Assembly: GCA_963754875.1 (NCBI GenBank)
Contig: CAVWHO010000022.1
Coordinates: 1-64,000 of the forward strand
DNA from: Nitrospirota bacterium
Lineage (GTDB): Bacteria; Nitrospirota; UBA9217
DNA length: 64,000 nt
Reading direction: 5' to 3'
The notes under the pieces were generated by a model. It saw only the letters and a program-made list of their open reading frames with translations, was not told the DNA's origin and did no database searches. Of this stretch, positions 40,567-58,880 are shown piece by piece. The position numbers and the translations under genes were made by a program. How positions within the stretch are numbered: the first letter of the stretch is position 1; the number at the start of each line of letters is the position of its first letter.

Positions 40567-40798
40567 TAAGTCCAAGACATCAATAGTTCCAAAGGAAAGA
40601 GTTACTTCTCGCCGTCGTCGTTATTACCAGTAACACCTACTACTATTGGGGTTTCGAAAAATGAGAACTCTATCGAATACCGGTAGAAACATAGTATGTC
40701 AGCAGAATGACAGAACTCACGATAGCCGCCTTGTCGAGCGTAGTCAGCGGACGGCAACAACACCTCAGCTTTCCATCGTCGTCGGCGTTGTGGCGAGA

Positions 40799-40976
40799 TG
40801 ATCTGTGTGGATCAACCCATTAAGCGACCCCAACCCATAAGGGAAAAACGCTTTATCTATGCGGTCTTCCATGCACAACATACTATTACGACGCATCTCG
40901 TTTTTTGACACTTTTTTCACCGATCATAGGTGTACTTGATGGCCTATTAAATCAGTGATTAAAACGCAAGTCAAGC
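40799..40976. repeat. Rhs-cassette junction repeat, copy A (empty: IHTDHL stub only)
   Basis: TGATCTGTGTGGATCA + TAAGGGAAAAACGC...TTACGAC...TTTTGACACTTTT...ATCATAGGTGTA...CAAGTCAAGC. Confidence 0.85.
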
Positions 40977-40995
40977 AGTCTGATGATATTTGCAC

Positions 40996-41023: not shown

Positions 41024-41083
41024 ACCTTAAAAGGTACTAATAATATCTTATCAGGTATTCATAATTGGAAGGAGGTGTTTTCA

Positions 41084-41578
41084 ATGTCATTCGGGAAAAA
41101 CGTGGCGCGGTTCAGAAAAGAGAAAGGCTTGACCCAGGAGGATCTGGTTAAAAAGAGCGGAGTGGCGATCTCGCAGATCAGAAGGTACGAGGCAGACAAG
41201 TCCTCGCCTACCCTCGACGTGATCACTAAGTTGGCCAAGGCCCTGGGCGTTTCCATCGACGAGCTGGTGTTCGACAAGACTTCCGGGATCGCTGCAGGCA
41301 AGCTCATGGACCGGGAGCTTCTGGAGCAGTTTGAGATGGTGTCCGCGTTGAATGAGGATGAACGTCTGGCGGTTAAAAAAATACTAGAGGGGATTATCGT
41401 GAAACATCAGGTTGAGAAGATGATGAGGCCCGCAGTGGAGAAGTCCTGGTCGCAGCGGTTCCGGGAGATCACGGACAAGCTCGCGAAGGGCGCGAAGGGG
41501 TATTCACAGAAGGAGATCGACAAGGTGATCGATGAGGCGGTGGCTGCGGTCAGGACAAAAGAGCATGCCCACACCTAA
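41084..41578 (+). CDS. XRE-family HTH regulator with antitoxin-like C-terminal extension
   Basis: FGKNVARFRKEKGLTQEDL...QIRRYEADKSSPTLD...LAKALGVSIDELV; overlaps the PIN gene. Confidence 0.85.
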   Translation: MSFGKNVARFRKEKGLTQEDLVKKSGVAISQIRRYEADKSSPTLDVITKLAKALGVSIDELVFDKTSGIAAGKLMDRELLEQFEMVSALNEDERLAVKKILEGIIVKHQVEKMMRPAVEKSWSQRFREITDKLAKGAKGYSQKEIDKVIDEAVAAVRTKEHAHT

Positions 41579-42002
41579 GCTGAAGGCGGTTATCGATACG
41601 AGCGTGATGGTGAGCGTGGCCTTTGCCAGGGAAGGACTGACCAGAGAGATGCGGGACATGATCGCGGACGGGGCCTTTACGCTCGTTACGTCGAAGGCGA
41701 TCATGGCCGAGCTCTACCGCGTGCTACACTACCCTCACATTCAAAAACGGTTCAAGCCGTCGGAAGACGACATCAACGAGTTTATCGGCATGGTCATCGA
41801 GCGCTCGCTGATCACCAAGGGCCGCTACAGCCTCAAGAAGATCGCGGATGATCCGTCGGACGATATGTTCCTCGCCTGCGCGCTCGAAGCGAAGGCGGAC
41901 TTCATCGTCTCCCGCGATCCGCATATCAGGAACTTGAAGCAGTTCCACGGCGTGAAGATCATCGATGTGAAGGCATTCATGGAAAAGGCGAGGATGAAGT
42001 AG
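41565..42002 (+). CDS. PIN-family putative toxin
   Basis: AVIDTSVMVS...DDPSDDMFLACALEAKADFIVSRD. Confidence 0.88.
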   Translation: MPTPKLKAVIDTSVMVSVAFAREGLTREMRDMIADGAFTLVTSKAIMAELYRVLHYPHIQKRFKPSEDDINEFIGMVIERSLITKGRYSLKKIADDPSDDMFLACALEAKADFIVSRDPHIRNLKQFHGVKIIDVKAFMEKARMK

Positions 42003-42051: not shown

Positions 42052-43182
42052 TTATTTTTTCTGAGATTTTATATTTTCTATCGCCGATTCTAGTAACTTT
42101 ACCATCCGCATTTTATCATCTTGCAGTTTCTTTTCAAATTCGTCCTTCCTCGAGCTATTTTTTAACCACGGATACGAGGTAGGAAGTACTTTTGCTGCAG
42201 CCAATGCAAGCGAGAGCTCCTTTAACGTCTTTTGCGTATCGCCTTTACCATCATAAGCACTCGCCACTGCTCCCCGAATATAAACTTCGGTTAAAGGTTC
42301 AATGTTCTTCTCAGTAATTAGAGAACTATAGAATTTTATTGCTCGCTCGAAATCGCCTGAATCTTTATAGCAGGAATTCAACATAGGAAAATAATAGGAA
42401 AAGTTAACAGAGGGGTCTAGCTTGATGACACTCTCATAAATGACTACTGATTTTCTGCAATCCGGCTTTATCTTAGCATATACTCGAGCAAGGTTTTCCA
42501 ACGATTCCCTGTCATCATGATAATTCTGAACTCGTCTTTCTAACCAATCGGCATAAGCTTTATCCTGGCTTTCCACCGAAGGTTCGTTTGTAGGAGTAAG
42601 GCCTTGAATGAACCAATCGACATCAGCTGCTTTATCAAGGACAGCAATTTGCGCAGATCGATCGATGGCCTGAAACACCATCGACACTGATATTACTGTC
42701 CGCGATTTAAGGCAAGCAATTCTTTTTTTAATAAGGTTCTGCGTAGCATCATGCACTTTGTCCCATGAAGATTCTTTGAAAGATACGATGATGGAATACT
42801 TCTCGCTGCCGTTGAACAGTGTTTTGTTAACGCAAACAGCAGCGATGTCGTTTCTATCGAAAGCGGGTTTCTTAGATATGAGGTAGGTTTTACCACTTTT
42901 GTCCGATACTGATTCAAATAACGATAAGGACTGTTTCTCAATATTCTCGTCGGCGACAGATGCAAACGAAAAATCAATATTGGCTCCGCCATAACAGTTC
43001 CTTATTAGTGTTTTTTCCCGAGCCGCATCTTCTTTGATGAGCTCAATAAGTTTTACGGGGTCAAATGGAGTACCATCTGTACGCGCGTTCTTTTGTGCGA
43101 TTTGATCCGAAGTTGTGCAGCTAATTATATTCACAAAAAAGAAAATAAAAAGCATTGTCTTCATTACTCTTGATCGTGTCAT
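42052..43182 (-). CDS. Predicted lipoprotein (SecD/F P1-like segment plus TPR-like helices); candidate immunity for cassette B
   Basis: Lipobox-like IISC; DIAAV...IIVSFKE...ATQNLIKKRIA; C-terminal LARVYA...GDFERAIKFY. Directly downstream of the tip. Confidence 0.55.
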   Translation of the reverse strand: MTRSRVMKTMLFIFFFVNIISCTTSDQIAQKNARTDGTPFDPVKLIELIKEDAAREKTLIRNCYGGANIDFSFASVADENIEKQSLSLFESVSDKSGKTYLISKKPAFDRNDIAAVCVNKTLFNGSEKYSIIVSFKESSWDKVHDATQNLIKKRIACLKSRTVISVSMVFQAIDRSAQIAVLDKAADVDWFIQGLTPTNEPSVESQDKAYADWLERRVQNYHDDRESLENLARVYAKIKPDCRKSVVIYESVIKLDPSVNFSYYFPMLNSCYKDSGDFERAIKFYSSLITEKNIEPLTEVYIRGAVASAYDGKGDTQKTLKELSLALAAAKVLPTSYPWLKNSSRKDEFEKKLQDDKMRMVKLLESAIENIKSQKK

Positions 43183-43247: not shown

Positions 43248-43829
43248 TTATAAGTGACATGAGCAATTTCCAGATAGTGTGTATGGCCCATATGCTAAAA
43301 TGTTAGGATCTAGATTGCCAGATGTCCATGCCGATACGGAAATAAATTTGAGTGGTACTTTTGATATATACACACCATAGTCACCGCTTTTGCCGCACTC
43401 AAGCGTTGATTTTATATTATTAACGGCGTTTATAACTTGACCACCTACCTTCGTAGCAAGCATAAAATCGCCAAACGCTTCCAGGTTTTCTATTAAGCTT
43501 CCAAGATCTGGTCCTTCAGTCAATCCTAAAGGATCCATACGTCTGATCGGATTATTTCCCACGTACGGGAAAAGACTATTCATTCCTCCAATCAACCCCA
43601 TCGGATCAGACTCTATGTATCTCCCGATCACCGGATTATAGTCCCTGTAATAATTATAATTCAGCCCCGTCTCAACATCGTAATACTGTCCAGGGAAGCG
43701 GAGATTGTTTGTGATGGTATTGGTGGTGATGTTGACTTCACCGAACGGTTTGTAATCCGCAGCCCAGACAACAACCCCAGAAGAGTCCGTCATCTTCTGC
43801 GGAGTACCTAAATGATCTGTGTGGATCAT
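43248..43829 (-). CDS. Orphan Rhs core-end plus toxin tip, cassette B
   Basis: MIHTDHLGTPQKMTD...NLRFPGQYYDVETGLNYNYYRDYNP...PYVGNNPIRRMDPLGL plus a ~90-aa unique tip. Confidence 0.88.
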   Translation of the reverse strand: MIHTDHLGTPQKMTDSSGVVVWAADYKPFGEVNITTNTITNNLRFPGQYYDVETGLNYNYYRDYNPVIGRYIESDPMGLIGGMNSLFPYVGNNPIRRMDPLGLTEGPDLGSLIENLEAFGDFMLATKVGGQVINAVNNIKSTLECGKSGDYGVYISKVPLKFISVSAWTSGNLDPNILAYGPYTLSGNCSCHL

Positions 43830-43987
43830 CCCATACCGCGACTTCAGCGCATAAGGGAAAAACGCTGTATCTATGCGGTCTTGCGAGCATAACATCCTCT
43901 TACGCCACGCCCCGTTTTCTGACACTTTTCTTGCATATCATAAGTGTAGTTGGCCCATTTAATCATTGATTACAGAGCAAGTCAAGC
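43813..43987. repeat. Rhs-cassette junction repeat, copy B
   Basis: Same core site and conserved blocks as copy A. Confidence 0.85.
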
Positions 43988-43999
43988 GATTATCAATAA

Positions 44000-44204: not shown

Positions 44205-44495
44205 CTATGGTCGATTTTTATCCTGATTAAACGGTTTATAAAAATAGGTGTAAAGAATAGCAATGATGATAGAAGCTATCATTGTCCGATAGATCCATTT
44301 TAATTGCGAGTCCTCTTGTTCAGTTAAATAAACGATCGTACCATGAATATTCAGAGGATAGGTTCTTTGAATGTCAGCCTGTGGCTGCCCAGGCCGCGTG
44401 TACGCGTAATGATAGTTTAAATATACATATAACCCCAGGGATACAAATATCACTGTCACAATTACGAACGCTATAGCTTTTTTGTACTTTCTCAT
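44205..44495 (-). CDS. Two-TM candidate immunity protein, cassette C
   Basis: Small AT-rich membrane protein directly downstream of the tip. Confidence 0.6.
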   Translation of the reverse strand: MRKYKKAIAFVIVTVIFVSLGLYVYLNYHYAYTRPGQPQADIQRTYPLNIHGTIVYLTEQEDSQLKWIYRTMIASIIIAILYTYFYKPFNQDKNRP

Positions 44496-44530
44496 GGGAA
44501 AACTCCATTGACGCAGTTTCACGAAGTTTA

Positions 44531-45283
44531 CTAATGACACGATGCGGTTCCAACAGGAGGAGAAGCGCCATTTGGATTTCCGAACACATTAAATAGCGGT
44601 GTAATATTCGTTCCTGTTATTGTTGTTGAACCACCAGCACTTAGGCCAGGACCGACTGTCACACCTCCGCCATGAACAGTTCCATTAGGGCTACTACCGG
44701 TAAAAGCGTCCCCCGAAGCATTTGGACCCCAGCCACCTCCGAGACTTACTTGATTAAATGGACCGGATAAATCATTAATGGTCTGAGCATTTGAACCACT
44801 TACACTTACCCCACCCGAAACACCGCCACCGGCACCCGCGCCGCCACCTCCGGTTGTATAAACACCTATATTGCCCGATCCATCAAAGGCGATGCCAGCC
44901 GAACCTGTAAAGGTAAATGGACCCACCTGTCCGGTTACAGTTATGCCGACTTGCACGGTAGTTAACCCCAACGGATCAATAAATCTGACTGGGTTATTTC
45001 CTACATAGCGGTAGAGGTTAATTCCGCCTCTTAAGCCAATTCTGTCAGCTTCGTTGTACCTGCCGGTATTTGTGTTCAAGCCCCTGAAGTAATTGTAGAG
45101 CGAGCCCGTCTCTGCATCGAAGTACTGACCTATGCCACGTAGGTTGTTCGTGATCGAACTGGTGATATTGTATGCTTCCCCGAATGGTTTAAAATCCGCG
45201 GACCACTGAACCGTCCCGTTTGAGTCCGTCATCTTCTGGGGAGTGTCAAGATGATCTGTGTGGATCAGCCCGTACCGCGTCAC
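44531..45283 (-). CDS. Orphan Rhs core-end plus Gly-rich toxin tip, cassette C
   Basis: LIHTDHLDTPQKMTD...GGINLYRYVGNNPVRFIDPLGL plus a Gly/Ser-rich tip; the core has diverged (NLRGIGQ). Confidence 0.85.
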   Translation of the reverse strand: MTRYGLIHTDHLDTPQKMTDSNGTVQWSADFKPFGEAYNITSSITNNLRGIGQYFDAETGSLYNYFRGLNTNTGRYNEADRIGLRGGINLYRYVGNNPVRFIDPLGLTTVQVGITVTGQVGPFTFTGSAGIAFDGSGNIGVYTTGGGGAGAGGGVSGGVSVSGSNAQTINDLSGPFNQVSLGGGWGPNASGDAFTGSSPNGTVHGGGVTVGPGLSAGGSTTITGTNITPLFNVFGNPNGASPPVGTASCH

Positions 45284-45388
45284 CGACCTTTAAAGGAAAA
45301 ACCCTTTAATAATGATGTGGTCTTCAGTGATATACAACCTCCTATGACACCACTCTTTTTTCGACACTTTTTTTAGCAATCATAAGTA
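45252..45388. repeat. Rhs-cassette junction repeat, copy C (truncated, diverged)
   Basis: Core site intact; distal promoter block absent. Confidence 0.75.
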
Positions 45389-46044
45389 TCGGTGCTGGCG
45401 GTTAAGCCAAGTGGCGAAACGACGCCACCGAAGCGTAAACATCGCGTAGATCCTTGATGTGTTTCTGGGAAGTGACAAGGCGAAGAAGGCCGGTTGAAAG
45501 ACTGCGGTTCCTTCGGTCGGCCTTCTGCTTGAACATTATGAACACAATGAACACGAAAATCAGCGGCGTCGTTTTCTGCCGTTGGCTTGTTTGATTTGTC
45601 GGGCACGATGTTCCTTAATGATAATAGATAGTCGATAAAAAAGATCACAAGACTAAAAAATGAAAAAAGGATGCAGGTGCCCCATATAGCGCCGATGGAT
45701 TTTTGACAAGAATTTCCAGGATCTTTGGGATCGTAGAGAATGTCTATTGCTTGGCCTTCTTTGTAAACGCCGAATGGGTTTAGTTTTAAAAGTTCATATT
45801 CATTTCCAGTTGCATTATAAAACTTAATAATCGGAAAATTCGAAATATATGTGTCCCGCCACCCCCCGCGTCCACCTTCTATATTGTATGTAACTGGCTG
45901 ACTTCTAAACCCTTTCACGATCGCAACGGTAGGGATAGCCGCTCTCAGAAATAGAAGAGTCACAAAAAAGTGGTAAGCCGCTATGGTGAGAAATAGCAGC
46001 GCCAAAATGGTAGATGTTTTAACAGTAGCTCCTAAGATTCGCAT
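45373..46044 (-). CDS. DUF3592-like membrane protein (paralogue of 57833..58318; reads through into the repeat)
   Basis: TM, PIIKF..ATG, YKEGQAIDILYDPKDP, TM. Confidence 0.65.
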   Translation of the reverse strand: MRILGATVKTSTILALLFLTIAAYHFFVTLLFLRAAIPTVAIVKGFRSQPVTYNIEGGRGGWRDTYISNFPIIKFYNATGNEYELLKLNPFGVYKEGQAIDILYDPKDPGNSCQKSIGAIWGTCILFSFFSLVIFFIDYLLSLRNIVPDKSNKPTAENDAADFRVHCVHNVQAEGRPKEPQSFNRPSSPCHFPETHQGSTRCLRFGGVVSPLGLTASTDTYDC

Positions 46045-46156
46045 TGATGCCCAAACCAACAATTGAGCAGACCTTTCCTCAACATTCCATAATGCGTGCT
46101 GATCCTATCTTTGCGTCTTTAGTCCATTTTTCTCCCGCAACGAGACCCATACACAT

Positions 46157-46609
46157 CTAATGTTCCTTGTGGTTTGCCATTTTTATAAAAAGCCAAATTA
46201 CTCCCATAAATATGAGCGCCGATAAAACCGGCATAATCAAAGCACTTATTTGTGTTCCAAGATCAGGAGCTTTCCAAAAGTTCCATAACCGTGAATTTAG
46301 CGCTAAGAAGATAGCAAGAGCTGGAAAACTATAATAAAAAGCTTCTTTTCTAAAAACATAAAAAAGAAGATAGCCAGAAATTGTCGCCGATATTAACGCT
46401 GAGATTGAAGTAGATATAATATTTAGACATATGGTCAAGATCAAGATAACTATCTCTGACTTTATCGTTGAAGCGCGCAGTGAGATAAAATCAAAGCTCC
46501 AGTTAAACAGTAAATGGTTTACATACCCAAAAACAAATCGGAAGATTAGCCCTATACAAAATGCATAGCACCAGGATATCAATTTATTTTTGCGGATTAG
46601 AGCAACCAT
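46157..46609 (-). CDS. Multi-TM candidate immunity protein, cassette D (paralogue of 58385..58867)
   Basis: KNKLISWCYA...LWNFWKAPDLG...; directly downstream of the tip. Confidence 0.65.
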   Translation of the reverse strand: MVALIRKNKLISWCYAFCIGLIFRFVFGYVNHLLFNWSFDFISLRASTIKSEIVILILTICLNIISTSISALISATISGYLLFYVFRKEAFYYSFPALAIFLALNSRLWNFWKAPDLGTQISALIMPVLSALIFMGVIWLFIKMANHKEH

Positions 46610-46622
46610 GCTTATCCTCTTA

Positions 46623-47216
46623 TTAATACATGTAGAATATCCACTTCCATTCAAGACAACAATCTTTAGGGGGAGCATGACAAACACCGGGTTCCTGCGG
46701 GCAGGGTTTTGCACAAACCCGCTTGAAGCTCCATATCTGCCCCGTTCTATCTCCCAAATTAAAATCGGTCAGACCGGTAGCAATACTGTTAAGCGATCCT
46801 GCCGCTCCCGCATTACCAGGATAACTGGATGGCCCCGATCCTGAAGTCGCGTCGTCTAATCCTTTTGAGTCAACTCGATTCATGGGACTATTCCTCACAT
46901 AGAGATAATCATGAAGATGGCCAGGAGTCATAACAAAAGCAGAGGGGACAAAATATGTTGCACGGTTGTGGATAAAGGGTAACAACAATGGGTCCGATTC
47001 CAGATAACGCCCAATCACAGGATTGTAGTCCCTATAATAATTGTAATTCAGCCCCGTCTCCGCATCGAAGTACTGCCCCGGGAATCTCAGGTTGTTCGTG
47101 ATCGTTGATGCGGTGACCGTAGCTTCGCCGAATGGTTTGTAGTCAGCAGACCAGACGACCGCGCCGGTTCCGTCCGTCATCTTTTGTGGGGTGCCAAGAT
47201 GATCTGTGTGGATCAT
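46623..47216 (-). CDS. Orphan Rhs core-end plus Cys-rich tip, cassette D
   Basis: MIHTDHLGTPQKMTD...YVRNSPMNRVDSKGL-DDATSGSGPSSYPG...CAKPCP...CH...CC.EWK. Confidence 0.88.
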   Translation of the reverse strand: MIHTDHLGTPQKMTDGTGAVVWSADYKPFGEATVTASTITNNLRFPGQYFDAETGLNYNYYRDYNPVIGRYLESDPLLLPFIHNRATYFVPSAFVMTPGHLHDYLYVRNSPMNRVDSKGLDDATSGSGPSSYPGNAGAAGSLNSIATGLTDFNLGDRTGQIWSFKRVCAKPCPQEPGVCHAPPKDCCLEWKWIFYMY

Positions 47217-47383
47217 CCCGTCCAGCGGCCTCGGCTCATATGGAAAAAACGCCGTATCTATGCAGTCTTCCGAGCACTATATCCTATTACGACACCTCGC
47301 CGATTAAGCCTCTTTTTTCAAAGATCGTAGGTGTACTTGGATGTGATGGTCTATTAAATCATTGATCAAAACTCAAGTCAAGC
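47200..47383. repeat. Rhs-cassette junction repeat, copy D (adjacent to the recombinase element)
   Basis: GATGATC-TGTGTG-GATCATC core plus all conserved blocks. Confidence 0.85.
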
Positions 47384-47465
47384 GATTAAGTATGTATTGA
47401 CTCTGGAGGGGTGTGAGGAACTAAAAAAATCACGCGAGCATAGTGCTCCGTAATTTTGCAGGAAG

Positions 47466-47852
47466 TTACCATTCCGCTCTAACGGGATACTTCGTGATAC
47501 GAGGATCGGGTGTGAGGATAATGTGCCCGCCAGCAATCGCCTGGCAGACGAGTATTCGGTCGAAGGGGTCTTTGTGATAATCGGGGAGACGGGAAAGCTG
47601 CAATACTGAGGCTTCGTCCAAAGGCAAAGAGTCAATCTCGTGGCGCGTGCGCCACTTCTTGATAAATTCGTGCGCAGGCTCGGGCAACGGTAATTTGCCC
47701 AGTTTGTTTTTGACGATGATCTCCCACGCGGACGCTACGCTTAAGTAAACCTCGTTGCCTGGATCGGAGAAGAGATGACGCGCAGTATCAGATAGCTCAG
47801 GACTGCCAGATGCAATCCACAGGAACGTACAGGTATCCAGAAGAAGGTTCAC
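47466..47852 (-). CDS. vapC: VapC-family PIN toxin
   Basis: LLLDTCTFLW...YLSVASAWEI...HKDPFDRILVCQA...LTPD. Confidence 0.92.
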   Translation of the reverse strand: MNLLLDTCTFLWIASGSPELSDTARHLFSDPGNEVYLSVASAWEIIVKNKLGKLPLPEPAHEFIKKWRTRHEIDSLPLDEASVLQLSRLPDYHKDPFDRILVCQAIAGGHIILTPDPRITKYPVRAEW

Positions 47853-48094
47853 GATTCTTCACCGCGAAACTGGGCAAGTGTTTCCTCGGGCAGATCTTCG
47901 AAGAACGAGGCAGGCACCTTGAATTTCCCTTTTGCCAAGCCGATGGAGCGCGGCTTGTGCCGATGAACCGCGAGCGGACGCAGTTCAGCAACCGGCTGGT
48001 TCCGCCGACACAGCAAGACGGTTTCCCCATGCTCTACTTCTTCGACGTAGTGAGACAAATGAGTTTTGGCTTCGTGCATATTTATTTTTTTCAT
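47849..48094 (-). CDS. Phd/YefM-family antitoxin
   Basis: INMHEAKTHLSHYVEEVEHGETVLLCRRNQPVAELRP; GTGA overlap with vapC. Confidence 0.92.
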   Translation of the reverse strand: MKKINMHEAKTHLSHYVEEVEHGETVLLCRRNQPVAELRPLAVHRHKPRSIGLAKGKFKVPASFFEDLPEETLAQFRGEES

Positions 48095-48139: not shown

Positions 48140-49072
48140 TCAATCCCGGTCCTTCTCCCTTGGGTGGCATTTGGTGTGGACTTCTTTGAGATCAGCGATA
48201 CTGACTGACGTATAAATCTGGGTCGTTTCGAGTGATGCATGCCCAAGCATCTCCTGGATGTGATGTATGTTGGCCTTGTTTCTGAGCATAAGCGTTGCGC
48301 ACGTGTGCCTGAAGGTATGAGGCGATATATTCTTCTTGATCTTCGTTTTTTTGCCGTAAATCTTCACCAGCTCCCATACCCTGTTTTTTGATAGTTTAGT
48401 CCCGTTAATGGTGAGGAATAGATGATTGTCCGTCGGGTCTTTAACGAGCATGGGTCTTACCGCCTTTACGTAGTTTTCTATGTATCTGCATGCGATCTTG
48501 CCGATCGGGACGACACGGTCCTTGCTTCCTTTTCCACTGTTCACTCTGACGTAGCCCTCGTAATAGTCCACATCCGCAAGCTGCAGGTTAATCAGTTCGT
48601 TCCTTCTGATCCCGGTTGAGTACAAGACCTCGAGGATGGTCCGGTCCCGGTATCCAGTAGCGGTTTTTGTGTTGGGTGCATGGATAACCTTCTTCGCTTC
48701 CGGTCCCGTCAAAATCGAGCGGGGCAGTCTCCTGGGCGTCCTGGCATAGGATATGTCTTTGGCCGGATCGCTCACGAGGTAGTTCTTTTCGACGAGGAAG
48801 CGGAAGAAGCCTTTCAAGGCCTTTAAGGTGTTGTTCTGGTGGAAGACGCTATTTGGTTCCCCCCGGCTGTTGACCATCTCGTAAATGTGAGCCTGGTAAT
48901 CATGTACGATTTCTTTTGCGACCTTGCTGACTTTGGTGACGCCTTGCTCTTCGATCCAAGCGAAGAAGCGGTTAAGAAAATAGATATGTCTCTTGATCGT
49001 TTCGGGGGCATAGTGAATGACCGTAAGGTGCTGGCGGTATGTTTCTTTTAATGTATTAAAGTCGTTATTCAT
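48140..49072 (-). CDS. XerC/D-like tyrosine recombinase 2
   Basis: YSTGIRRNE, GKGSKDR, SPHTFRHTCAT, LGHASLETTQIYT, HPRE. Confidence 0.92.
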   Translation of the reverse strand: MNNDFNTLKETYRQHLTVIHYAPETIKRHIYFLNRFFAWIEEQGVTKVSKVAKEIVHDYQAHIYEMVNSRGEPNSVFHQNNTLKALKGFFRFLVEKNYLVSDPAKDISYARTPRRLPRSILTGPEAKKVIHAPNTKTATGYRDRTILEVLYSTGIRRNELINLQLADVDYYEGYVRVNSGKGSKDRVVPIGKIACRYIENYVKAVRPMLVKDPTDNHLFLTINGTKLSKNRVWELVKIYGKKTKIKKNISPHTFRHTCATLMLRNKANIHHIQEMLGHASLETTQIYTSVSIADLKEVHTKCHPREKDRD

Positions 49073-50054
49073 GATGAGGCTGCCCCTTCTTAAACCGGAT
49101 GTCGGGAACAGCGTCTACTCGCTCGTCTTTATCACGTTCTCTCGGATGGCTCATGTCATGGGTCTTCTTTACGTCAACGCCGGCAACGCGGAGGTAGATG
49201 TTCGTTGCGCTTAAGTTCGAGTGACCGAGCATCTTCCGGACTGCGGTGATGTCGGCGCCGTTTCTGACAAGCTCCGTTGCGAACGTATGCCGAAAGGTGT
49301 GGGGCGTCACTTTCTTTGTAATCCCGGCTTTCCTTGCATAGTCTCTCACCATGAGCTCAATCACCTGCTTGGAGAGCGGTCCGTTAAAGCGGCTGACGAA
49401 AAGGTTCTTAACGGCTTTGTTCTTTTTCGTATGTTGTGGACGCACGCGTGTGAAGTAGTCTTTTAAAAACCTTACCGCATGTTTGCCGAGAGGTATAAAT
49501 CTGTCCTTGGAAAATTTGCCTTTAACCCGTATCAGACCGCCCTGGAGATCGCAGTCGAAGATGGTAAGCTTTATCAGCTCTTCAAGCCTGATGCCAGTTG
49601 AGTAGAGGACTTCGAGCATGGCACGGGCACGAATTCCGCTGATAGTGTTTAGCCTCGGCTGTGCTAGGATCCTCCTAACCTCGACTTCGCTCAGGACATT
49701 TCTCGGGAGACGTGTTTCTTTCTTCGGCTCTTTGATGTGCTCAGCCGGGTTGATGAGGATCGTACCGCTGTCTTCGAGGTATTTGAAGAAGCGCTTCATC
49801 GCCCTGGTCTTTGTGCAGATTGTGCCAACGCTGTACTTGTTGTTCGTCCGCGTGCTTGTGTGGTCCATGATCTTGAGCTGGTACGCATGGAGATGATCGC
49901 GGGTAACGCGCTTCACGTCTGTTATGCCACGTTCCTTGAGATAGGCAAACAGGCCAGGGAGGTGTTCGCAGTAAGCCGCAATACTGGCAGGAGAGTAATT
50001 CTTCACCTTCATGTGTTCGGTGAACCTGGAGAGATGATGGTCAAAGCCGTTCAT
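49065..50054 (-). CDS. XerC/D-like tyrosine recombinase 1
   Basis: YSTGIRLEE, KGKFSKDR, TPHTFRHTFAT, LGHSNLSATNIYL, HPRE; overlaps recombinase 2. Confidence 0.92.
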   Translation of the reverse strand: MNGFDHHLSRFTEHMKVKNYSPASIAAYCEHLPGLFAYLKERGITDVKRVTRDHLHAYQLKIMDHTSTRTNNKYSVGTICTKTRAMKRFFKYLEDSGTILINPAEHIKEPKKETRLPRNVLSEVEVRRILAQPRLNTISGIRARAMLEVLYSTGIRLEELIKLTIFDCDLQGGLIRVKGKFSKDRFIPLGKHAVRFLKDYFTRVRPQHTKKNKAVKNLFVSRFNGPLSKQVIELMVRDYARKAGITKKVTPHTFRHTFATELVRNGADITAVRKMLGHSNLSATNIYLRVAGVDVKKTHDMSHPRERDKDERVDAVPDIRFKKGQPHHE

Positions 50055-50196
50055 GATTCGCCTCGTTATATATGTATGATCGATGTTTTTCACGCATCCG
50101 GTATATATGCTTTTCTTTAAAACCGCCAAGATGCTGTTCGTAAGTGAGATAATACTATGTTAATTAATAGTTTTTTCTTGATTCATACTTGCACTA

Positions 50197-52788
50197 CTAC
50201 TGCCCTCCAACCGCCCTCCTGGTACCCTCCAACTGGTCTTTTTTGCCCTCCAAGTTTTTGGCCTTCTCCTTGAGCTGTTCGATACTCGTCAGTCCCATGA
50301 GGAAGGGCTTACCGTCCTCGCCTCCGCCCGGATAGAGAAGCTCGTAGACGTATTCCTTGCCTTTCTTGCCGGCAACGGAGTAGATGTACTCCAGGTCTTC
50401 GAGCTGCCGTACATGGCACTTGGTCTGAAAGTCGCTCCATTTGGTCCATTCGCGTATGTTCTTCCGCGTGAAACGGTATGCCTTGGGTTCGATGTTCTGC
50501 CGTTTGCATTCGGCCTCGACCATGCCGCGGATCATCTTGAGCAGAAGGCGAGATGGTGGGGAGAGCTCGTCGAGCGTGCGACCAAGGATCTCGGCAGCCA
50601 GGTTGTTGGCCTTCTCGATGTCGTTTAATGTCACTTCGATGTATTGGATGGCTGAGCCATTCTGCTGCACGGTCTTGATCTCCCGCTGGTATTGATGCAG
50701 GAAGGCAATGGCCTTGATCAGGCCCAGATACTTCTTGTGGTCCCTTCTCGCACGTAAGGACTCCGAGGAGAAGGTTAGATGTGAAGCAAAGGGGTTGATG
50801 ATGTAAAGAGGCCGTAAGATGCGCTGCGCGTTATGATGCCGCATCGTGACATGCCCGGTCTCTGTCTTCCTGAACAGACCTTCGATCGTTTCGTTCTCAC
50901 GCTGCTTCTGGAGGATGCGCTCGGTCATCTCTTTTGACTCGTCTACCGTGAGGATTATGAAGCGGTTGGATGTTTCGTAGTCCAACTCTGCCTCGGTCGT
51001 GGTGATCATAAGGGACACGGGGCCCTTTACCTTATACTCTTCAGTCATGAGCTTGCCGGTGGCCGAGTCCTTGCCTGTGGCGGCGATGGAGAGGTATTTT
51101 GAAGACTGGATGTTTCTGATAGAATAGGATGCGTCCCGCGCACCGTGCTCTTCCTCGATGGCAAGGAGCTTATGGACCAGGCTGTATTCCCCTTTATAGA
51201 ACAAGGCCTGACCGGTTAAGCGGGTGTATTTGATGTAATCTTCCGGAGGGATGAGAGAGAGCACGGCATCCTGCAGCGTGCTCTTGCCGGCAGCGCTCCG
51301 GGACTGGACCAGGACGGACAAGGGTTCCTCGAGCTTTCTGCTTGTTGCCGAGAGATAGCCCATGAGCTTGTTTGCATCTTCTCCGGTGATCCCTACGGTC
51401 TCGAAGTCAACGAGGATGCGGGTGAAAAGTTCCGGGTCTTTGAGAAACGCCAGGGCCTCGTCTTCTTCATCCCTGGTCATCTTTGGTATGGAAGAGGCGT
51501 CTCTGTTTTCAGGAATCCAGGACTCGGCCAGGTCGATAAGCTTAGAAATGTCTTCAGTCACGATCTCTTCTTTCTCGGAGAAGAGCACGGAGCAGGCTTT
51601 GGCGAAGAAAAGTCGGCTTCGATTGGAGTAAAGGTCTACGGTATCGAGATGGAAGGGCGGTGCTTTATCGCCTGGTTTCTGCTTAGCTGCCTTGATCGTC
51701 GCTTTGAGCTTCACGCCTTCTCTCACAATCCCGCGCACGTCGTAGCGCCGATCTTCGTACTGTACGACAAGACCGGTGTCGGTCTTTTCATATGCCTTTT
51801 GTTCGCTATTCACGATCTTGTCGGACCGAATCGATACACCTGAGTTGGATTCGCGTAAGAGTTCCTCGAAGACAGCGGGAGCGTTTGCGGTTAAGAGAAA
51901 AAAGGAGTTGATATCCACGTTGCCCGCGTTTGTTGGCAGCGGGACCTCTGGGAGCTGCACGATATACGGCTCGATGCCTTTCCCCTTTAACTGCGCTGCT
52001 ACGGTCTTAGCATCAATGTTGCCGACGTCGTCTTTGTCGAAGCAGATATAGACTTCTTTAACCTGGCTATTAGTGATAATGTCTAACTGGTCCCGAGTGA
52101 AGCCCTGCGCGTCGCAGCAGGGAATCACGTCTTTAAAACCGGCATTATAGAGAGTGAGCATGTCTATTATGGATTTTGTGAGGATTATTGATTTTGATCT
52201 GTTTGCCGCCTGATAGTTGAAGATACTGCAACGAGAACCTGGGAGATACACGTGAGAGGGTTCGCCGTCCGTAATCTTGCGGCCGTAGAGACTGACGCAG
52301 TTTTTATTAGTATCTAAGATCGGAAAGACTGCACAGCCGTGAAACATCTCGTTACCGTGTTCGTTTAGGATTCCGATCTCCTTGAGGGCTTCGCGGATAT
52401 CGCCTTCTTCCGGGATGGTATTTATCAGAGTGCCGTTGCTGTAGCCGATCGTAAAGTCTGCGAAAATAGAGTTGCCCGTTATCCCGCGAGAGTGAAGATA
52501 CTCTAAGGCCCGGCGGTCTTCGCAAAAGGTTTTATGATAGAAGGAAACGACGCGGTTTAAAAGATGAGTGTGGTTGATGAATGATTCCGGGTCGGGGGGT
52601 TCCTTTGCCTTCTTCTCCGGATTCTTTCCTCTGAGCTTATTGGCTGTCTCACATGTGTATTCTGGTGAATTCAGGCAGGCATTCGGTTTCGTTTCGGGCA
52701 CGCATTCCGATTCAATTCGGGCACTCTCCAACGGGATAACCGATTGCTGGGTTAAAGCTACTATCTCATAGGGATTTTGACTTGTCAA
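50197..52788 (-). CDS. DnaG-like toprim plus P-loop ATPase protein; native 5' end separated by IS21 (native ATG 55319)
   Basis: ALEYLHSRGI..IGYSNG..FHGCAVFPI..LYGRKI, toprim-like IILTKSIID / CFDKDDVG, Walker A SRSAAGKS. The first ~45 codons lie inside the IS end. Confidence 0.8.
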   Translation of the reverse strand: MTSQNPYEIVALTQQSVIPLESARIESECVPETKPNACLNSPEYTCETANKLRGKNPEKKAKEPPDPESFINHTHLLNRVVSFYHKTFCEDRRALEYLHSRGITGNSIFADFTIGYSNGTLINTIPEEGDIREALKEIGILNEHGNEMFHGCAVFPILDTNKNCVSLYGRKITDGEPSHVYLPGSRCSIFNYQAANRSKSIILTKSIIDMLTLYNAGFKDVIPCCDAQGFTRDQLDIITNSQVKEVYICFDKDDVGNIDAKTVAAQLKGKGIEPYIVQLPEVPLPTNAGNVDINSFFLLTANAPAVFEELLRESNSGVSIRSDKIVNSEQKAYEKTDTGLVVQYEDRRYDVRGIVREGVKLKATIKAAKQKPGDKAPPFHLDTVDLYSNRSRLFFAKACSVLFSEKEEIVTEDISKLIDLAESWIPENRDASSIPKMTRDEEDEALAFLKDPELFTRILVDFETVGITGEDANKLMGYLSATSRKLEEPLSVLVQSRSAAGKSTLQDAVLSLIPPEDYIKYTRLTGQALFYKGEYSLVHKLLAIEEEHGARDASYSIRNIQSSKYLSIAATGKDSATGKLMTEEYKVKGPVSLMITTTEAELDYETSNRFIILTVDESKEMTERILQKQRENETIEGLFRKTETGHVTMRHHNAQRILRPLYIINPFASHLTFSSESLRARRDHKKYLGLIKAIAFLHQYQREIKTVQQNGSAIQYIEVTLNDIEKANNLAAEILGRTLDELSPPSRLLLKMIRGMVEAECKRQNIEPKAYRFTRKNIREWTKWSDFQTKCHVRQLEDLEYIYSVAGKKGKEYVYELLYPGGGEDGKPFLMGLTSIEQLKEKAKNLEGKKDQLEGTRRAVGGQ

Positions 52789-53525
52789 CGATTGATCTTT
52801 GATTTGCTCTTTCTCATTGATTCTCCTTTCAGGTCTATTTTGTAGGCGTTATGCACCAGACGGTCCATGATAGCGTCAGCCAAGGTCGGGTCGGCCAGGA
52901 TATCATGCCAGTGCTTAACCGGCATTTGGGTAGTTATGAGGGTCGACCGGCGATCATAACGGTCCTCGATGATTTCCAGAAGATCTCTTTGCTGTTCCGT
53001 CGTGAGCGGAGCAAGTCCGAAGTCGTCGAGGACAAGCAGGTCTGCCTTGAGAAGTGACTTCATCAGTTTCCGATACCGTCCGTCGTGATGCGATAGGGCC
53101 AGATCTTCAAGAAGCCTCGGCAGCCTCTGATACACGACGGCATGACCATCACGGCAGGCTTTGTGGGACAGGGCGCAGGCAAGATAGCTCTTTCCCACGC
53201 CGGTCGGGCCGATGATAAGCAGATTGTGATGCTCGATAATCCACTGGTTCGACGCAAGCGACAGAATGAGCGATTTGTCCAGCCCTCGGGGCTGACGGAA
53301 GTCGATGTCTTCGACAGAGGCAGAGATTCGTAGTTTTGCAACCCGTAAGCGCGTAACAAGCCGTCTGTTCTCTCGTTCTGTCAGTTCTCGGTCAATAAGG
53401 AGCCCAAGCCGCTCCTCAAAGCTTAGTGAAGTCGCTTTTTGATTCTGCAGTTGTTCACGCAGGGCTTTTGCCATGCCAAAAAGACGGAGTTGTTCGATCT
53501 TGTCGAGTGTGGGATGCGCTAACAT
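52785..53525 (-). CDS. istB: IS21 helper ATPase IstB
   Basis: GPTGVGKSYLACAL, LLVLDDFG, ADAIMDRLVHNAY..LKGESMRK. Confidence 0.96.
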   Translation of the reverse strand: MLAHPTLDKIEQLRLFGMAKALREQLQNQKATSLSFEERLGLLIDRELTERENRRLVTRLRVAKLRISASVEDIDFRQPRGLDKSLILSLASNQWIIEHHNLLIIGPTGVGKSYLACALSHKACRDGHAVVYQRLPRLLEDLALSHHDGRYRKLMKSLLKADLLVLDDFGLAPLTTEQQRDLLEIIEDRYDRRSTLITTQMPVKHWHDILADPTLADAIMDRLVHNAYKIDLKGESMRKSKSKINR

Positions 53526-53543
53526 AATAGTCTCCTTTTGCAG

Positions 53544-55085
53544 TTAGTTATAGTATTCGCTGCCACGGATGTTGCTGTGAGTGATCGCCTGTGATGCGGC
53601 TTTTGGCTCTGGTAACGGTTTTTTGTCTAAATTTGTTTCAAGGATGGACTTGACGCTTCCGAAACTGATGCCCCCGATGGCGAGTGCTCGCTTGCAGGCA
53701 GCCTCGACGCGTTCTTTGCCAAACTTCTTGGAAAGAGTGATGATCCCCATACAGGAACGAAAGCCTTGTTGTGGGTGAAGCTTCTTTGCGAGAATGGCCG
53801 TAACCAGCTCTGCCGTTGATTTGCCGGTTTCCGATGCCCAGCGTATCAGGCGCTCTGGGGTCCAGTCAGCATAGTCCCGATGGGACTTCGGCATGTGCTC
53901 GGCAAGTGTCGTATGTCTTCCCTTGGCATAGGACCGGATATGTGAGGCGATGCGTTTGTTGTGAAAGAAGACTTCTACAATCGATTCCGTTAGCCGTACG
54001 TCCAGGTATTCATTGCGGAGTTGGTAGGGTACGCTGTAATAGTGGTCATTGACTTCGACGTGGTAATCGATGCCGGAACGTTTTTTTATCTTCCATTCTG
54101 CGTAATCGAAGGCCACAGCAGGCAGCGGTTGTAATGCAGGCTTATCGATCTCCAGAAAACGGCTCATACGGCTGCCGGAGAGCTTCTTGAAGGGCCGGTT
54201 ATTGAGTCTATCCAGCAGTTCCCGGATAGCGGCATTGAGTTCTGCGAGGCTGAAGAAGGTACGGTTCCTGAGGGCTGCCAGGATCCAACGCTGCACCAGA
54301 AGGACTCCGGCTTCAACTTTCGCTTTGTCTTTAGGCTTCCTGACGCGGGCAGGAATGACCGCAGCACCGTAATGAACTGCAAGCTCTTGATAGGTGCGAT
54401 TGACGCCTGGCTCATAGCGACAGACCTTGGTGATGCCGGAGAGAAGATTATCAGGGATCAGGATCTCGGGCACACCGTCGATGAACTTAAGGGTCCGGAC
54501 ATGGGAACCGATCCAGTCTGGCAGACCCTGCGTAAACGTTGCTTCGGCATATGTAAAGTTGCTGGCGCCTAGGACGGCGACGAAGATCTGACAGTTGTGT
54601 ACCTCTCCGGTGGATTTGTCGATTACCGAGACTGTTTGGCCACAGTAATCAACAAACAGCTTTTCTCCTGCAAGATGAACCTGTCGCATGGAGATATCGA
54701 GCTTTTTTGCATAGGCGCGATAGAGGTCACAAAAATGTGCGTACTGATATCCTTCAGGATATTGCGCTTTGTACTCGTCCCACAGGAGCATCAGGGTAAC
54801 ACTTTTACGCGCAAGCTCGCGGTGAACATCCTCCCATACAGGGAGCGGACGTGGAGATGTGGAGACAATGACCGGCGGGTAGAGAAGATGCTCGAGGGCG
54901 GTATCGTCCAGGTCTGCCGGCAGGGGCCATGATAGCCCGGCCTGTCTGGCTCGTTTCGTATACTCGTCAACGGTGCTTCTGGCTATTCCACAGCTTTTGG
55001 ATATAGCGCGGCGGTCTAGGCCGCAGGACCATTTGAGGCGTAAAACTTCTTTAATTGTTCGCACGGGTATTCTTTCTCTCGTCAT
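53544..55085 (-). CDS. istA: IS21 transposase IstA
   Basis: HLAGEKLFVDYCG, FVAVLGASNFTY, VPEILIPDN, PKDKAKVE, DYHVEV..HYYSVPY. Confidence 0.96.
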   Translation of the reverse strand: MTRERIPVRTIKEVLRLKWSCGLDRRAISKSCGIARSTVDEYTKRARQAGLSWPLPADLDDTALEHLLYPPVIVSTSPRPLPVWEDVHRELARKSVTLMLLWDEYKAQYPEGYQYAHFCDLYRAYAKKLDISMRQVHLAGEKLFVDYCGQTVSVIDKSTGEVHNCQIFVAVLGASNFTYAEATFTQGLPDWIGSHVRTLKFIDGVPEILIPDNLLSGITKVCRYEPGVNRTYQELAVHYGAAVIPARVRKPKDKAKVEAGVLLVQRWILAALRNRTFFSLAELNAAIRELLDRLNNRPFKKLSGSRMSRFLEIDKPALQPLPAVAFDYAEWKIKKRSGIDYHVEVNDHYYSVPYQLRNEYLDVRLTESIVEVFFHNKRIASHIRSYAKGRHTTLAEHMPKSHRDYADWTPERLIRWASETGKSTAELVTAILAKKLHPQQGFRSCMGIITLSKKFGKERVEAACKRALAIGGISFGSVKSILETNLDKKPLPEPKAASQAITHSNIRGSEYYN

Positions 55086-55582
55086 CCAGCTCTCCTTAGA
55101 AGCGAATTTTAAGGAGCAGGATATACGAATTTGTAGAATTTACCCAGCGTCGTTTAATGCGTTAGAGGGTGCCTGAATTGGAGCGGAACACCGGCCCGAA
55201 TTGCAGTGGAATGGGTGCCTGAATTGGAGCAGAACAGGTGCCTGAATTGCAGTGGAATGGCTGCCTGAATTGGAGCAGAATACTCACTCACAGACACTGA
55301 GTTCCTTGCTTTTACTCATTTCGGCCTACTTTGTAAAACTCTGTCAAGAGGTTGGCGATAATCGGAACTAAGACGATTTCGATAATGGTCTTATCGTAAT
55401 AAATTGAAAATGAGCGCATCGCAGCATTGAGTACCTTTTCCTTCGTCGTAAGGCTATCTAATCCTGATGGCAGGATTGTTACCGCATCTTGCACGAAACA
55501 TCAATCCGATCTTGTATCTCACGACAAAAAGCAGCACAGTGCATTGATTTGTTATGTCTATTTTCCGCTCTCTGCTTGTATC

Positions 55583-55990
55583 TCATGTAAAGCGGCGGGG
55601 AGAGACAGCCAATCTTGTCGGAATATCAATGAGTTGAAAGGGTATTCCGGCTTGTATCTCGCGAAGCAGAAAGACGTTTTCCTGAACTGCATCAAGAGCT
55701 TTGGAGAACATCTCGGCTTTTATCTCGTCAGGCCTCAATTTCATACGCCGCTCTTTTCGCTTCCGACGCCAACTCTTCTGGTAGTCAAGGTGATCCTTTC
55801 TCCACTCCTTGACCACATCGTATCTGCCAAGCCAGTAATCGGGATTCTTTCTGCGAAAGCGCTTGTTGCTCTCACTCTTACTAACTTTTCGACACGTCGC
55901 CGAACACACCTTCTGGCGCAGCCCGACCCTTTTGTCCGGCACGAACATTTTGCCGCAGCACTGACAACGTTTCTCTCTCGCCATCATCAT
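55583..55990 (-). CDS. Basic hypothetical protein with Zn-finger-like Cys motifs
   Basis: RCQCCGKMF...QKVCSATCR; Arg/Lys-rich; GGAGAG RBS. Confidence 0.6.
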   Translation of the reverse strand: MMMAREKRCQCCGKMFVPDKRVGLRQKVCSATCRKVSKSESNKRFRRKNPDYWLGRYDVVKEWRKDHLDYQKSWRRKRKERRMKLRPDEIKAEMFSKALDAVQENVFLLREIQAGIPFQLIDIPTRLAVSPRRFT

Positions 55991-56192
55991 TCGCTCTCCC
56001 CGAGATCTGTGATGGCTTCACTGTATTGATTTTGTCGAAGAATAAAAGGCCCGAAATGAATCTTGAAAAGAAAGGATCAAAGTACAGGAATTAAATCAAG
56101 GATGTCATTGCGGCTGTGGCTCATAAGGGGGAAGCCCTTTCTCAATGTGGCCTTCAAAGGGCAACATACTCAAGGTAAAGGTCATATAAACT

Positions 56193-56861
56193 TCATTGGT
56201 TTTCAACAGAGACTTTTACTTTTCTGTACAAGAAGAACAATAGAATTACCATAAAAAGAGTAAGTAGAAGATGGACCATATTTGCTTGCCGCAACGTTGC
56301 GTCGATCATCTTTCCAATCTGAGTAGAGTTTAAGCCGCCTGCGGCATTCAGAGAACCGGTTGCAATAATCTTATCGACTTGATGTTTATAATATCTACCC
56401 AGAATCAGAGTTGGCACGTAAAACAAAATAGCTAATAGGATAAAGTATATTGGTATCTTCTTGCCGATAAGCTTGTTTTTCTCGTTGTCTAAGCCAGTAA
56501 AGTAAATAAGAATAGACCAGAGAGACGCGGCCAACGAAAATAGCACGAGTATCCTTGTAGCATACTCTGTTAAAACAGTTGGCGCGAGTTCTATTAAGAA
56601 ATAAATCTGTGCCGCTAAAGCGAGAGGCAATAAAACGCCACCAATTATTTTCATTTTAGGGTGTATGTTTCGGATCATCGCGGCCAAAAGAACTCCCATG
56701 GTGCTTAAAAGTAATTTTGATAATAGACTGATTAAGGCCCAAGCCGTGATCGAATAGGCACCTGCAATTTTCAACCATACGACTGAGACCAGACCATATG
56801 ATAGGATACAAAATAAGAAGTAATCCCTGATTTGCCGTTTGAAAGATTCAGAAGTACTCAT
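56193..56861 (-). CDS. Multi-TM candidate immunity protein, cassette E
   Basis: About six hydrophobic segments, AT-rich, directly downstream of the tip. Confidence 0.6.
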   Translation of the reverse strand: MSTSESFKRQIRDYFLFCILSYGLVSVVWLKIAGAYSITAWALISLLSKLLLSTMGVLLAAMIRNIHPKMKIIGGVLLPLALAAQIYFLIELAPTVLTEYATRILVLFSLAASLWSILIYFTGLDNEKNKLIGKKIPIYFILLAILFYVPTLILGRYYKHQVDKIIATGSLNAAGGLNSTQIGKMIDATLRQANMVHLLLTLFMVILLFFLYRKVKVSVENQ

Positions 56862-56874
56862 TTCATTTATCCTA

Positions 56875-57558
56875 TTATCGTGCAGCTTCACACGTCTCAT
56901 AAAATCGTTGGCGCAACATACCGCAATATGCCTCACCAGTCCGAAGACCAGGATCTTCTATGCCAGACGGGACAGTGAAGCAAACAATCGTTAACCCGGT
57001 TCCGATGATACCACCTATGATGGGATTCTGTGTCGCTACGCCAGCTCCGACACCGGCTCCAATGGCAAGTATTACACATGTAGTTGTGGCCATGCGCTGA
57101 GGTCCTTGTCGCATACGAGTCATACAATCATTATACGCCGCATCTGCCTGTGCTTGACATGTATCTGGTTGGCAAGCTCCTGTACCGCCGCTTACCTGCA
57201 ATCCTGAAGAGTCCATGAGATTCACAGGATCGTTTGCGGCATAAAGATAATCGTGAAGTTTGCTTGGAGTCTTTGTAAAATAAGGTGGGACAAAATAGCT
57301 TCGCCCTCGGTAGACAAATGGAAAAGACAATGGATCACTCTCAATGTACCTCCCGATCACCTGGTTATAGTCTCTATTAAGGTTATAGTTCAGTCCTGTC
57401 TCAGCATCATAGTACTGCCCGGGGAATTTGAGGTTGTTCGTGATCGTTGATACAGTGATCGTCGCTTCCCCGAAAGGTTTGTAGTCCGCGGACCATACTA
57501 CGGTCCCTGATGAATCCGTCATCTTTTGTGGCGTCCCTAAATGATCTGTGTGGATCAA
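56875..57558 (-). CDS. Orphan Rhs core-end plus Cys-containing hydrophobic tip, cassette E
   Basis: LIHTDHLGTPQKMTD...YAANDPVNLMDSSGL plus a tip with VILAIGAGVGAGVA...IIGGIIGTGLTIVCF. Confidence 0.85.
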   Translation of the reverse strand: MIHTDHLGTPQKMTDSSGTVVWSADYKPFGEATITVSTITNNLKFPGQYYDAETGLNYNLNRDYNQVIGRYIESDPLSFPFVYRGRSYFVPPYFTKTPSKLHDYLYAANDPVNLMDSSGLQVSGGTGACQPDTCQAQADAAYNDCMTRMRQGPQRMATTTCVILAIGAGVGAGVATQNPIIGGIIGTGLTIVCFTVPSGIEDPGLRTGEAYCGMLRQRFYETCEAAR

Positions 57559-57678
57559 CCTGCCCTGCGCTTCCGGACCATAAGAGAAAAGCCCTGCATC
57601 CATGATGGGTTTCGGGTGTTACGTATACTTACGACACTCTGCGTTTTTTGACACTTTTCCAAGAAATCATAGGTGTAG
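57542..57678. repeat. Rhs-cassette junction repeat, copy E (truncated)
   Basis: Core site plus TTACGACAC...TTTTGACACTTTT...ATCATAGGTGTA, then the XRE remnant. Confidence 0.8.
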
Positions 57679-57832
57679 ATTCTTGGGTTCAGCCAGATAA
57701 AAACTCTCGCGCCGAAGCGTAAGCAGATCGTGCAGATTCTCGATGCGTTCCTGGGAAGTGAGAAGGCGAAGAAGACCGGATGAATAACTACAGTTCCTTC
57801 GGTCGGCCTTCTGCTTGAAACATTATAAAATA

Positions 57833-58867: not shown

Positions 58868-58880
58868 GTTTATCCCCGTT

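Follow-up and report, generated by a model that had tools for sequence, protein, structure and literature searches.

Organization of the rhs array

The window analyzed here, a stretch of 64,000 nucleotides from a member of the Nitrospirota, contains an array of rhs genes and gene fragments that is read on the minus strand. It is headed by a full-length rhs gene (58881..62756, −), which encodes a DUF6531 domain, YD repeats, the Rhs core and a putative toxin tip. In the coding direction this gene is followed by a candidate immunity gene (58385-58939) and a DUF3592-like gene, both behind the current tip (57833..58939, −), then by an HTH remnant (57688-57780, +) joined to a shortened arm of non-Rhs DNA (57558..57690, −), and by core E (57542..57557, −), the first copy of a 16-bp sequence that recurs through the array. 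After core E come an orphan tip with its candidate immunity gene (56193-56936; 56193..57552 for both, −), a partial arm copy without an intact core (56109..56171, −), a 135-aa ORF with no named family (55583..55990, −), a Toprim primase with a P-loop region (50197..55319, −), two XerC/D-like tyrosine recombinases, a Phd/VapC toxin-antitoxin cargo (47466..48094, −), arm D (47216..47388, −; promoter-like motif at 47381) and core D (47200..47215, −). Recombinase 1 (49065..50129, −; 354 aa) has its catalytic motifs, including Y312, and recombinase 2 (48140..49072, −; 310 aa) has R156, K181, H252, R255, H278 and Y287. The 135-aa ORF has unnamed look-alikes in the Atlas (score 0.97, no Pfam) and occupies the position where other elements carry an HTH gene.

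The primase is broken near its start by an IS21-family insertion (istA/istB; 52654..55286, −), whose target repeat is 6 bp (TGTGAG) and which arrived later and lies outside the element proper; without it the E-to-D unit measures ∼7.7 kb. Five near-identical copies of this IS21 and three that are 88% identical occur elsewhere in the genome, and what is left of the primase has in front of it an in-frame TTG and a promoter-like match (52788), both contributed by the end of the IS.

Core D is followed by three recombinase-free modules that end in cores C, B, and A. The first (45373..47210, −), which contains tip D, a candidate immunity gene and a DUF3592-like gene and matches the module with the current tip at 79% identity over 1.9 kb, leads to a shortened arm joined to an HTH remnant (45268..45396, −), in which no promoter-like motif was found, and to core C (45252..45267, −). 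The second consists of orphan tip C and a candidate immunity gene (44205-44540; 44205..45262 for both, −), the C-terminal remnant of an HTH gene (44000-44191, +), arm B (43829..43992, −; promoter-like motif at 43985) and core B (43813..43828, −). In the third, orphan tip B, which begins at the core's spacer (43248..43823, −), is followed by an ORF that from its position may encode immunity or cargo (42052..43182, −), by an Xre/RstR-like HTH gene and a PIN gene, the remnant of an element that lacks primase and recombinase genes (41075..42002, +), by arm A (40815..40980, −; promoter-like TTGACT-N14-TG-N-TTTAAT from 40974) and by core A (40799..40814, −; TGATC-CACACA-GATCA in the coding direction), the oldest position in the array. 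A decayed Rhs remnant with stop codons lies behind core A (40745..40809, −; end approximate). None of the tips matched a Pfam toxin family, so the terms toxin and immunity are taken from the Rhs layout.

Several neighboring features stand apart from the array. On the plus strand, a 461-aa ORF and two large tyrosine recombinases in tandem (861 and 873 aa; 33789-40377) converge on the array end, and the large pair, which has a distant counterpart on another contig of genome G002, belongs to a separate element. The HTH and PIN pair at 41075-42002 is 87–94% identical to pairs in two other genera (G021:C200 and G177:C186), again beside a partial arm, which suggests recent spread of a reduced element. 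The host genome has a second rhs locus of the same layout on contig C16 (G000:C16:469230-475090), where an IS3-like remnant splits the arm, and the place upstream of both host rhs genes is taken not by vgrG but by a small Cys-rich ORF and a gene whose end is FlgD-like.

The 16-mer core and its arm

A first-pass annotation of this DNA had reported the identical 16-mer, TGATCTGTGTGGATCA, five times, and exact copies are indeed present at 40799, 43813, 45252, 47200, and 57542, far above shuffled sequence (mean 0.48, maximum 3); a search of the window that allowed up to three mismatches returned no further match. Read on the minus strand, the 16-mer is TGATC-CACACA-GATCA and encodes (M/L)-I-H-T-D-H. 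At the equivalent place (59455..59470, −; the presumed attL/attB half-site) the full-length rhs gene differs in one arm, as had been noted: the forward strand reads TGATC-TGTGTG-GTAAT, which in the coding direction is ATTAC-CACACA-GATCA (Y-Y-H-T-D-H), such that only the spacer and the right half are common to the gene and the 16-mer. The mirrored arms of copy D, presumably the right end (attR) of the recombinase-carrying element, extend to seven bases, also as described.

When the six regions were aligned, a sharp border became apparent at which Rhs similarity begins exactly at the spacer, and every copy consists of arm, TGATC, 6-bp spacer, GATCA and an Rhs 3′ fragment. The annotation's view that the flanks diverge needs qualifying, since on the element side all five copies have a conserved non-Rhs arm of ∼140–170 nt that runs straight into the 16-bp core, and on the other side they have common Rhs sequence. 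Copy A, said to keep the site with no toxin attached, does retain the site, but ∼65 nt of decayed Rhs sequence with stop codons still lie behind it. The spacer is invariant within the array but not genome-wide. A profile search of the host genome with the arm found six full copies, the sixth being on C16 behind the second full-length rhs gene (C16:469230-469245), where the spacer is CATACC in both the orphan and the full-length gene. Taken alone, TGATC-N6-GATCA is found 12 times in the host genome, and six of these matches are the arm-linked sites. At 10 places the arm contains a promoter-like motif, TTGAC(T/A)-N14-TG-N-TTTAAT-like, recognized by its conservation; a scan for consensus promoters was at chance level (33 vs. 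25.9 ± 4.8), and the arm motif was not among its listings.

Which half of the core carries signal

The loci fetched contain 70 distinct Rhs HxDH sites, which were classed by an arm model that omits the core and its 10 neighboring bases; it was trained on the six sites of the host genome, the other 15 arm-linked sites being independent of the training, and three of the 70 lie too close to a contig end for classing. TGATC is present at all 21 arm-linked sites and at none of the 46 without an arm, while GATCA is present at 21/21 and 36/46, respectively. Hence the right half follows the habit of the gene itself and the left one belongs to the element: TGATC is not Rhs-derived and occurs only behind the element arm. 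The Asp codon is GAT in 33 of 36 non-TGATC HxDH matches in the host family and in 4 of 15 outside it (a manual count covering the 64 listed of 65 matches from a pattern search of 401 genomes, a few of these matches perhaps not being Rhs). The bias of the right arm thus fails to discriminate within the host family and was dropped as evidence. The first-pass annotation had named the same bias in unlinked rhs genes as grounds for giving up its reading; GAT is common in those of the host family, so that the bias is largely present there, yet this refutes nothing, the informative half being TGATC. The GATCA half is mostly ordinary codon use.

The spacer is 6 bp, or two in-frame codons, and takes the forms CACAAC (11), CACACA (5), CACACC (2), CATACC (1), CACCCC (1), and CATAAC (1) at the 21 arm-linked sites. 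Orphan and resident full-length gene have the same spacer in 17 of 19 pairs (9 loci, several subfamilies), and such agreement is also seen in G209 and G026:C6. Across the 19 pairs, identity between main gene and orphan averages 19% in the 30 nt to the left of the spacer and 78% to the right. Strict identity of the spacer is not kept, as there is a one-base difference from the resident gene in two of the three G002 orphans, in Escherichia coli R12, and at the second MP1 site, and kinship among sites and genomes means that all of these counts overstate independence. Two sites deviate in other ways: at G001:C1:537231-537258, TGATC is three bases farther from the spacer than usual, and a single decayed arm-linked site (L154:2644-2790) is CAATC-N6-GATTA, in which the two halves have changed symmetrically.

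Measured against what is expected of an attachment site, inverted half-sites around a spacer of 6–8 bp occur on the element side only, the left half of the full-length gene mirroring the right at just 0–4 of 8 bases, which is a point against reading it as an attachment core. A spacer common to the partners yet variable between systems is found (17/19 identical, two off by one base), as is a linked recombinase with intact R-K-H-R-H-Y residues, in both genes of 48140-50129.

Another use of the left half would be as a translation start (N-TG ATC, Met-Ile) that is kept for orphan tips serving as toxin-antitoxin modules under the arm promoter, with the palindrome incidental. The base before TGATC does yield TTG at 11, ATG at 8 and CTG at 2 of the 21 sites, the arm has its promoter-like motif at 10 places, and transcribed, active orphans are described in the passages cited from Steele 2017 (PMC5727410). 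As the whole explanation this is nevertheless the least probable of those considered, since the Ile codon is ATC in 21/21 sites, with no synonymous change, ATC persists before dead remnants (copy A and C16), and other subfamilies of the element mirror the coding half without a start codon (GGATTGTT, GAGTTGTT, ACCTTT, and ATCCCTAT). It may be a secondary use of TGATC.

The element recombinases

Both recombinases of the element keep their catalytic residues and are neither chromosomal XerC or XerD, as judged by the NCBIfam equivalogs TIGR02224/TIGR02225 (241–257 bits vs. cut-offs of 330–335), nor integron integrases (TIGR02249, IntI, scores of 121 and 124 vs. a cut-off of 265). The best profile match of the pair is PRK01287 (318 and 265 vs. 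a cut-off of 371). A quick tree of 61 recombinase rows places the pair apart from the host Xer genes; in it, HxDH-using elements group together with 99% support for each of the two enzymes, and xGQY users fall in separate 100% groups.

Closely related recombinases, 62–81% identical, have different cores. In a comparison of seven close relatives by 12-residue windows, conservation within the catalytic domain is lowest at residues 225-241 (0.31–0.37 vs. a median of 0.76), which align to XerD 216-226. We take this segment of XerD to be its base-reading helix.

It is conceivable that the 16-mer is a true att site served by other enzymes, either host XerC/XerD or the large recombinase pair at 35171-40377 beside copy A, and three near-complete genomes (G002, G031, and G024) have arrays of arm and core in which no element recombinase was found, their only recombinase matches being host-like Xer (37–40%), while the large pair abuts the array end. 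This is considered very unlikely. The target motif tracks the tree of the element recombinases, and the core is unlike the dif sequences printed in PMC10210955. The large pair was rejected as the site's enzyme, being absent from all 79 element loci described below and present in one of five tested genomes, there on another contig. The element's own XerC/D-like pair remains the preferred candidate.

Distribution and target motifs of the element family

Using the recombinase alignment to scan metagenomes, 79 loci were obtained from the best 80 of 523 matches. Among the 33 loci of at least 6 kb, 32 have a primase, 21 an HTH match and 18 an Rhs match, and none of the 79 loci contains the large recombinases of 35171-40377. 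The whole layout of full gene, tip, HTH, primase, two recombinases, arm and core is seen in L017, with the spacer CATAAC on both sides. The primase occurs in 9/401 genomes of the phylum. A scan of genome contigs with a single protein gave one locus, a scan of viral contigs gave one weak primase match, and among phage records no full-length relative of the primase was found (0/16 matches cover 80%). Named plasmid records have the element unit, often as tandem copies, after Rhs or CdiA-like genes. A DNA search of E. coli with the window's recombinase genes gave no match, its relatives there having been found via a plasmid record.

Seven target motifs, HxDH among them, are recognized in Rhs/CdiA genes. 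In all of them the spacer is 6 bp long and in frame, and the half on the element side mirrors the coding half. The mirror is weak in xGQY cores (4–5 of 8 bases; by chance, 29/1,272 in-frame rhs positions mirror at 5 of 8) and reaches 7 of 8 in xxNNP cores, 5–8 of 8 in DPIG cores and 6–7 of 8 in CdiA VE-NN cores, and 9 and 8 of 10 in the NS-NNN and DD-KG cores, of which there is one site each. Candidate boundaries are present in L160 and L162; the junction sought in L015, L161, L163, L164, L165, and G300 was not resolved. In full elements (L017:8200-9280, L019:2100-3110, L059, L081, and L109), ∼1 kb of non-coding, GC-rich, repeat-laden DNA often lies between the last recombinase and the arm, a region absent from the window's unit that is a candidate origin or RNA.

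Terminal repeats are present in seven of the 79 metagenome loci, with unit lengths of 6.6–9.4 kb. Locus L048 contains a single element-type core and no Rhs N-terminus. A circular Lonsdalea record of 11.3 kb contains two units and no full rhs gene. Collapsed tandem arrays may be an alternative source of this picture, and an 8.8-kb circular record (L186) did not qualify as a clean attP circle. Three terminal-repeat contigs (L075, L088, and L093) have primase and recombinase and no Rhs match.

Empty and filled alleles in E. coli

The DPIG subfamily, a distant relative with a single recombinase, occurs in 54 of the 5,426 complete E. coli genomes and provides the empty/filled pairs described here; no empty allele was found for the window's own HxDH clade. 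In Ec-U10 and A34, the tip fused to the full gene is the one that lies behind the element arm in KW21 and D6. Comparing Ec-U10 (empty) with KW21 (filled), 540 unbroken bases upstream to the spacer match the main gene and 1,348 unbroken bases after the spacer match the orphan, with no match upstream of the orphan's spacer, and the two ends of the 7.8-kb KW21 insert have only 15 bp in common. A second, more diverged pair (JNE151685 vs. 06-00048) has the same border. On this sequence comparison, the exchange in the E. coli pairs is confined to the core, whether the empty allele is pre-integration or post-excision. E. coli R12 lacks one of the two units of MP1, and since the breakpoint is near the xerC end and not at the core, this case was rejected as precise excision and indicates that arrays also shrink by ordinary homologous recombination. 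Additional E. coli orphans (L188:15044, L189:15199 and 20265, and L191:24980) start from the same DPIG spacer with a different short flank containing TAGATT, which suggests that a further type of site or element exists at the DPIG motif.

These data bear on whether homologous recombination and duplication alone could account for the arrays, as in the model of Jackson 2009 (PMC2935791), in which RecA would insert circles of Rhs core and tip and the 16-mer would be a by-product of duplication and codon habit. Such a route is compatible with GATCA being the usual codon choice of the host family, with the breakpoint away from the core in R12 vs. MP1, and with the 79% identity between two of the window's modules. 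It is also compatible with an arm-free array (G242:C5:180958-193288, L149) in which orphans start at variable points, which in its own right represents a second way for arrays to arise within the same family. The variable-length orphan core fragments that the model explains, in the passages cited, are present in that array and absent in the arm-linked ones, where 21/21 orphans have an identical start point with non-Rhs DNA in front of it. Moreover, TGATC is found in 0/46 no-arm sites, and the E. coli empty/filled pair has just 15 bp in common. Homologous recombination alone is therefore an improbable explanation for the arm-linked arrays, if the least improbable of the alternatives considered.

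Proposed mechanism of tip exchange

The preferred reading, which in our judgment is very probably correct, is that the 16-mer serves a small integrative element as its crossover core and that this element would insert in frame at the HTDH codons of rhs genes by means of its own XerC/D-like recombinases. It draws on the unit of primase and two recombinases that ends at core D, on a spacer that tracks the resident gene and on relatives that repeat the geometry. The tyrosine-recombinase architecture that the first-pass annotation proposed for the core gains comparative support from the arm linkage, the junction identity and the E. coli allele pair, as does its proposal that a crossover in the spacer would preserve the frame, given two in-frame codons. 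To that annotation is added the likely enzyme, the pair at 48140-50129.

A circle with an attP consisting of arm, core, new tip and immunity gene would recombine with the HTDH codons of an rhs gene through cuts flanking the 6-bp spacer, and as this is exactly two codons, the reading frame is proposed to be kept. The rhs gene would gain the element's tip in frame, its immunity gene following, and the old tip would be left downstream behind the element's arm, such that repeated integration would build an array with the newest tip first. The loss of primase and recombinase genes would later follow in most modules, whose further movement, if any, would depend on enzymes provided in trans. The promoter-like motif in the arm would keep displaced tips and their immunity genes transcribed. 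A shift of target could occur through the recombinase recognition helix, after which the unconstrained half-site on the element side would evolve to mirror the coding half.

More broadly, and with less certainty, we think it probable that the array belongs to a widespread, unnamed family of tip-swapping elements, made up of a repressor, a primase, one or two Xer-like recombinases, and a tip with its immunity gene. These would represent a dedicated site-specific machine for toxin diversification, with at least seven Rhs/CdiA motifs, two-codon spacers, retargeting by one helix, replicating circles, and recombinase-free cassettes mobilized in trans.

The acquisition of tips by Rhs and CdiA proteins has been modeled since 2009, with no enzyme or site identified in the literature covered. 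What the present analysis contributes is a site defined to the base, a candidate pair of enzymes and natural alleles in the empty and the filled state; as the family occurs in 54/5,426 complete E. coli genomes, the question can be tested directly. If true, in-frame insertion of the element would explain the growth of Rhs tip arrays, and recombinases that are 62–81% identical and have different cores would be a natural series for the change of specificity in tyrosine recombinases.

Relationship to known systems

The displacement of tips and the co-location of integrases with arrays are already in print, but no defined site was found in the literature covered. As in the model of Jackson 2009 (PMC2935791), a full-length rhs gene is followed by displaced tips and a circular intermediate would push the old tip downstream; in the passages cited, that work attributes displacement to homologous recombination, with no integrase known with Rhs, whereas here there is one fixed orphan start behind a conserved arm, beside element-borne recombinases. 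Ruhe 2016 (PMC4927057) describes orphan cdiA-CT/cdiI modules as a “fossil record” in which new modules integrate into cdiA and displace old ones, and notes integrase genes among the orphans and suggests site-specific recombination, but its passages on this point define no element, enzyme or attachment site. Zhang 2012 (PMC3482391) and Steele 2017 (PMC5727410) place integrase or XerC/D genes near Rhs or poly-immunity loci, in the passages cited as co-location of Xer-like recombinases with arrays only. Part of the present finding may be anticipated by Martinkus 2026 (doi 10.1016/j.cub.2025.11.047), which is cited in a 2026 preprint for Xer-dependent systems adjoining poly-immunity arrays. For Vibrio arrays, Kirchberger 2017 (PMC5361080) in the part cited reports no evidence of an integrase and draws the comparison with integrons. 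The relevant parts of PMC11278526 and PMC10210955 describe orphans or dif sites and not an arm-linked Rhs site, and PMC3150448 contains none of six recombinase-related terms. Full-text searches, whose coverage ends at subscription journals and supplements, returned no paper that defines the element or its site; Additional File 1 of PMC3482391 may list neighborhoods of this kind.

Mobile elements that insert inside a gene and supply it with a new 3′ end include tRNA-targeting islands, the lambdoid elements e14 and phage 21 in icd, and Mx8. Like these, the present element has a tyrosine recombinase and a short core inside a gene whose 3′ part is replaced. They restore an equivalent end, however, whereas here a different putative toxin domain arrives with its own immunity gene, and the present family, unlike them, has been retargeted to several protein motifs. 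Integrons and CALINs also form ordered arrays with the newest unit first, and arrays without a recombinase exist there as well as here. Unlike integrons, the element inserts inside a reading frame, its units end in a mobile element's own arm and probably not in attC, and its recombinases score far below the cut-off for integron integrases. It is not an IMEX, which has a dif-like site and no recombinase of its own, since it encodes its own pair and its core is unlike published dif; a dif pattern search of the host genome gave no match. What the element does have is the combination of primase-helicase, integrase and divergent repressor that characterizes P4-like and PICI satellites.
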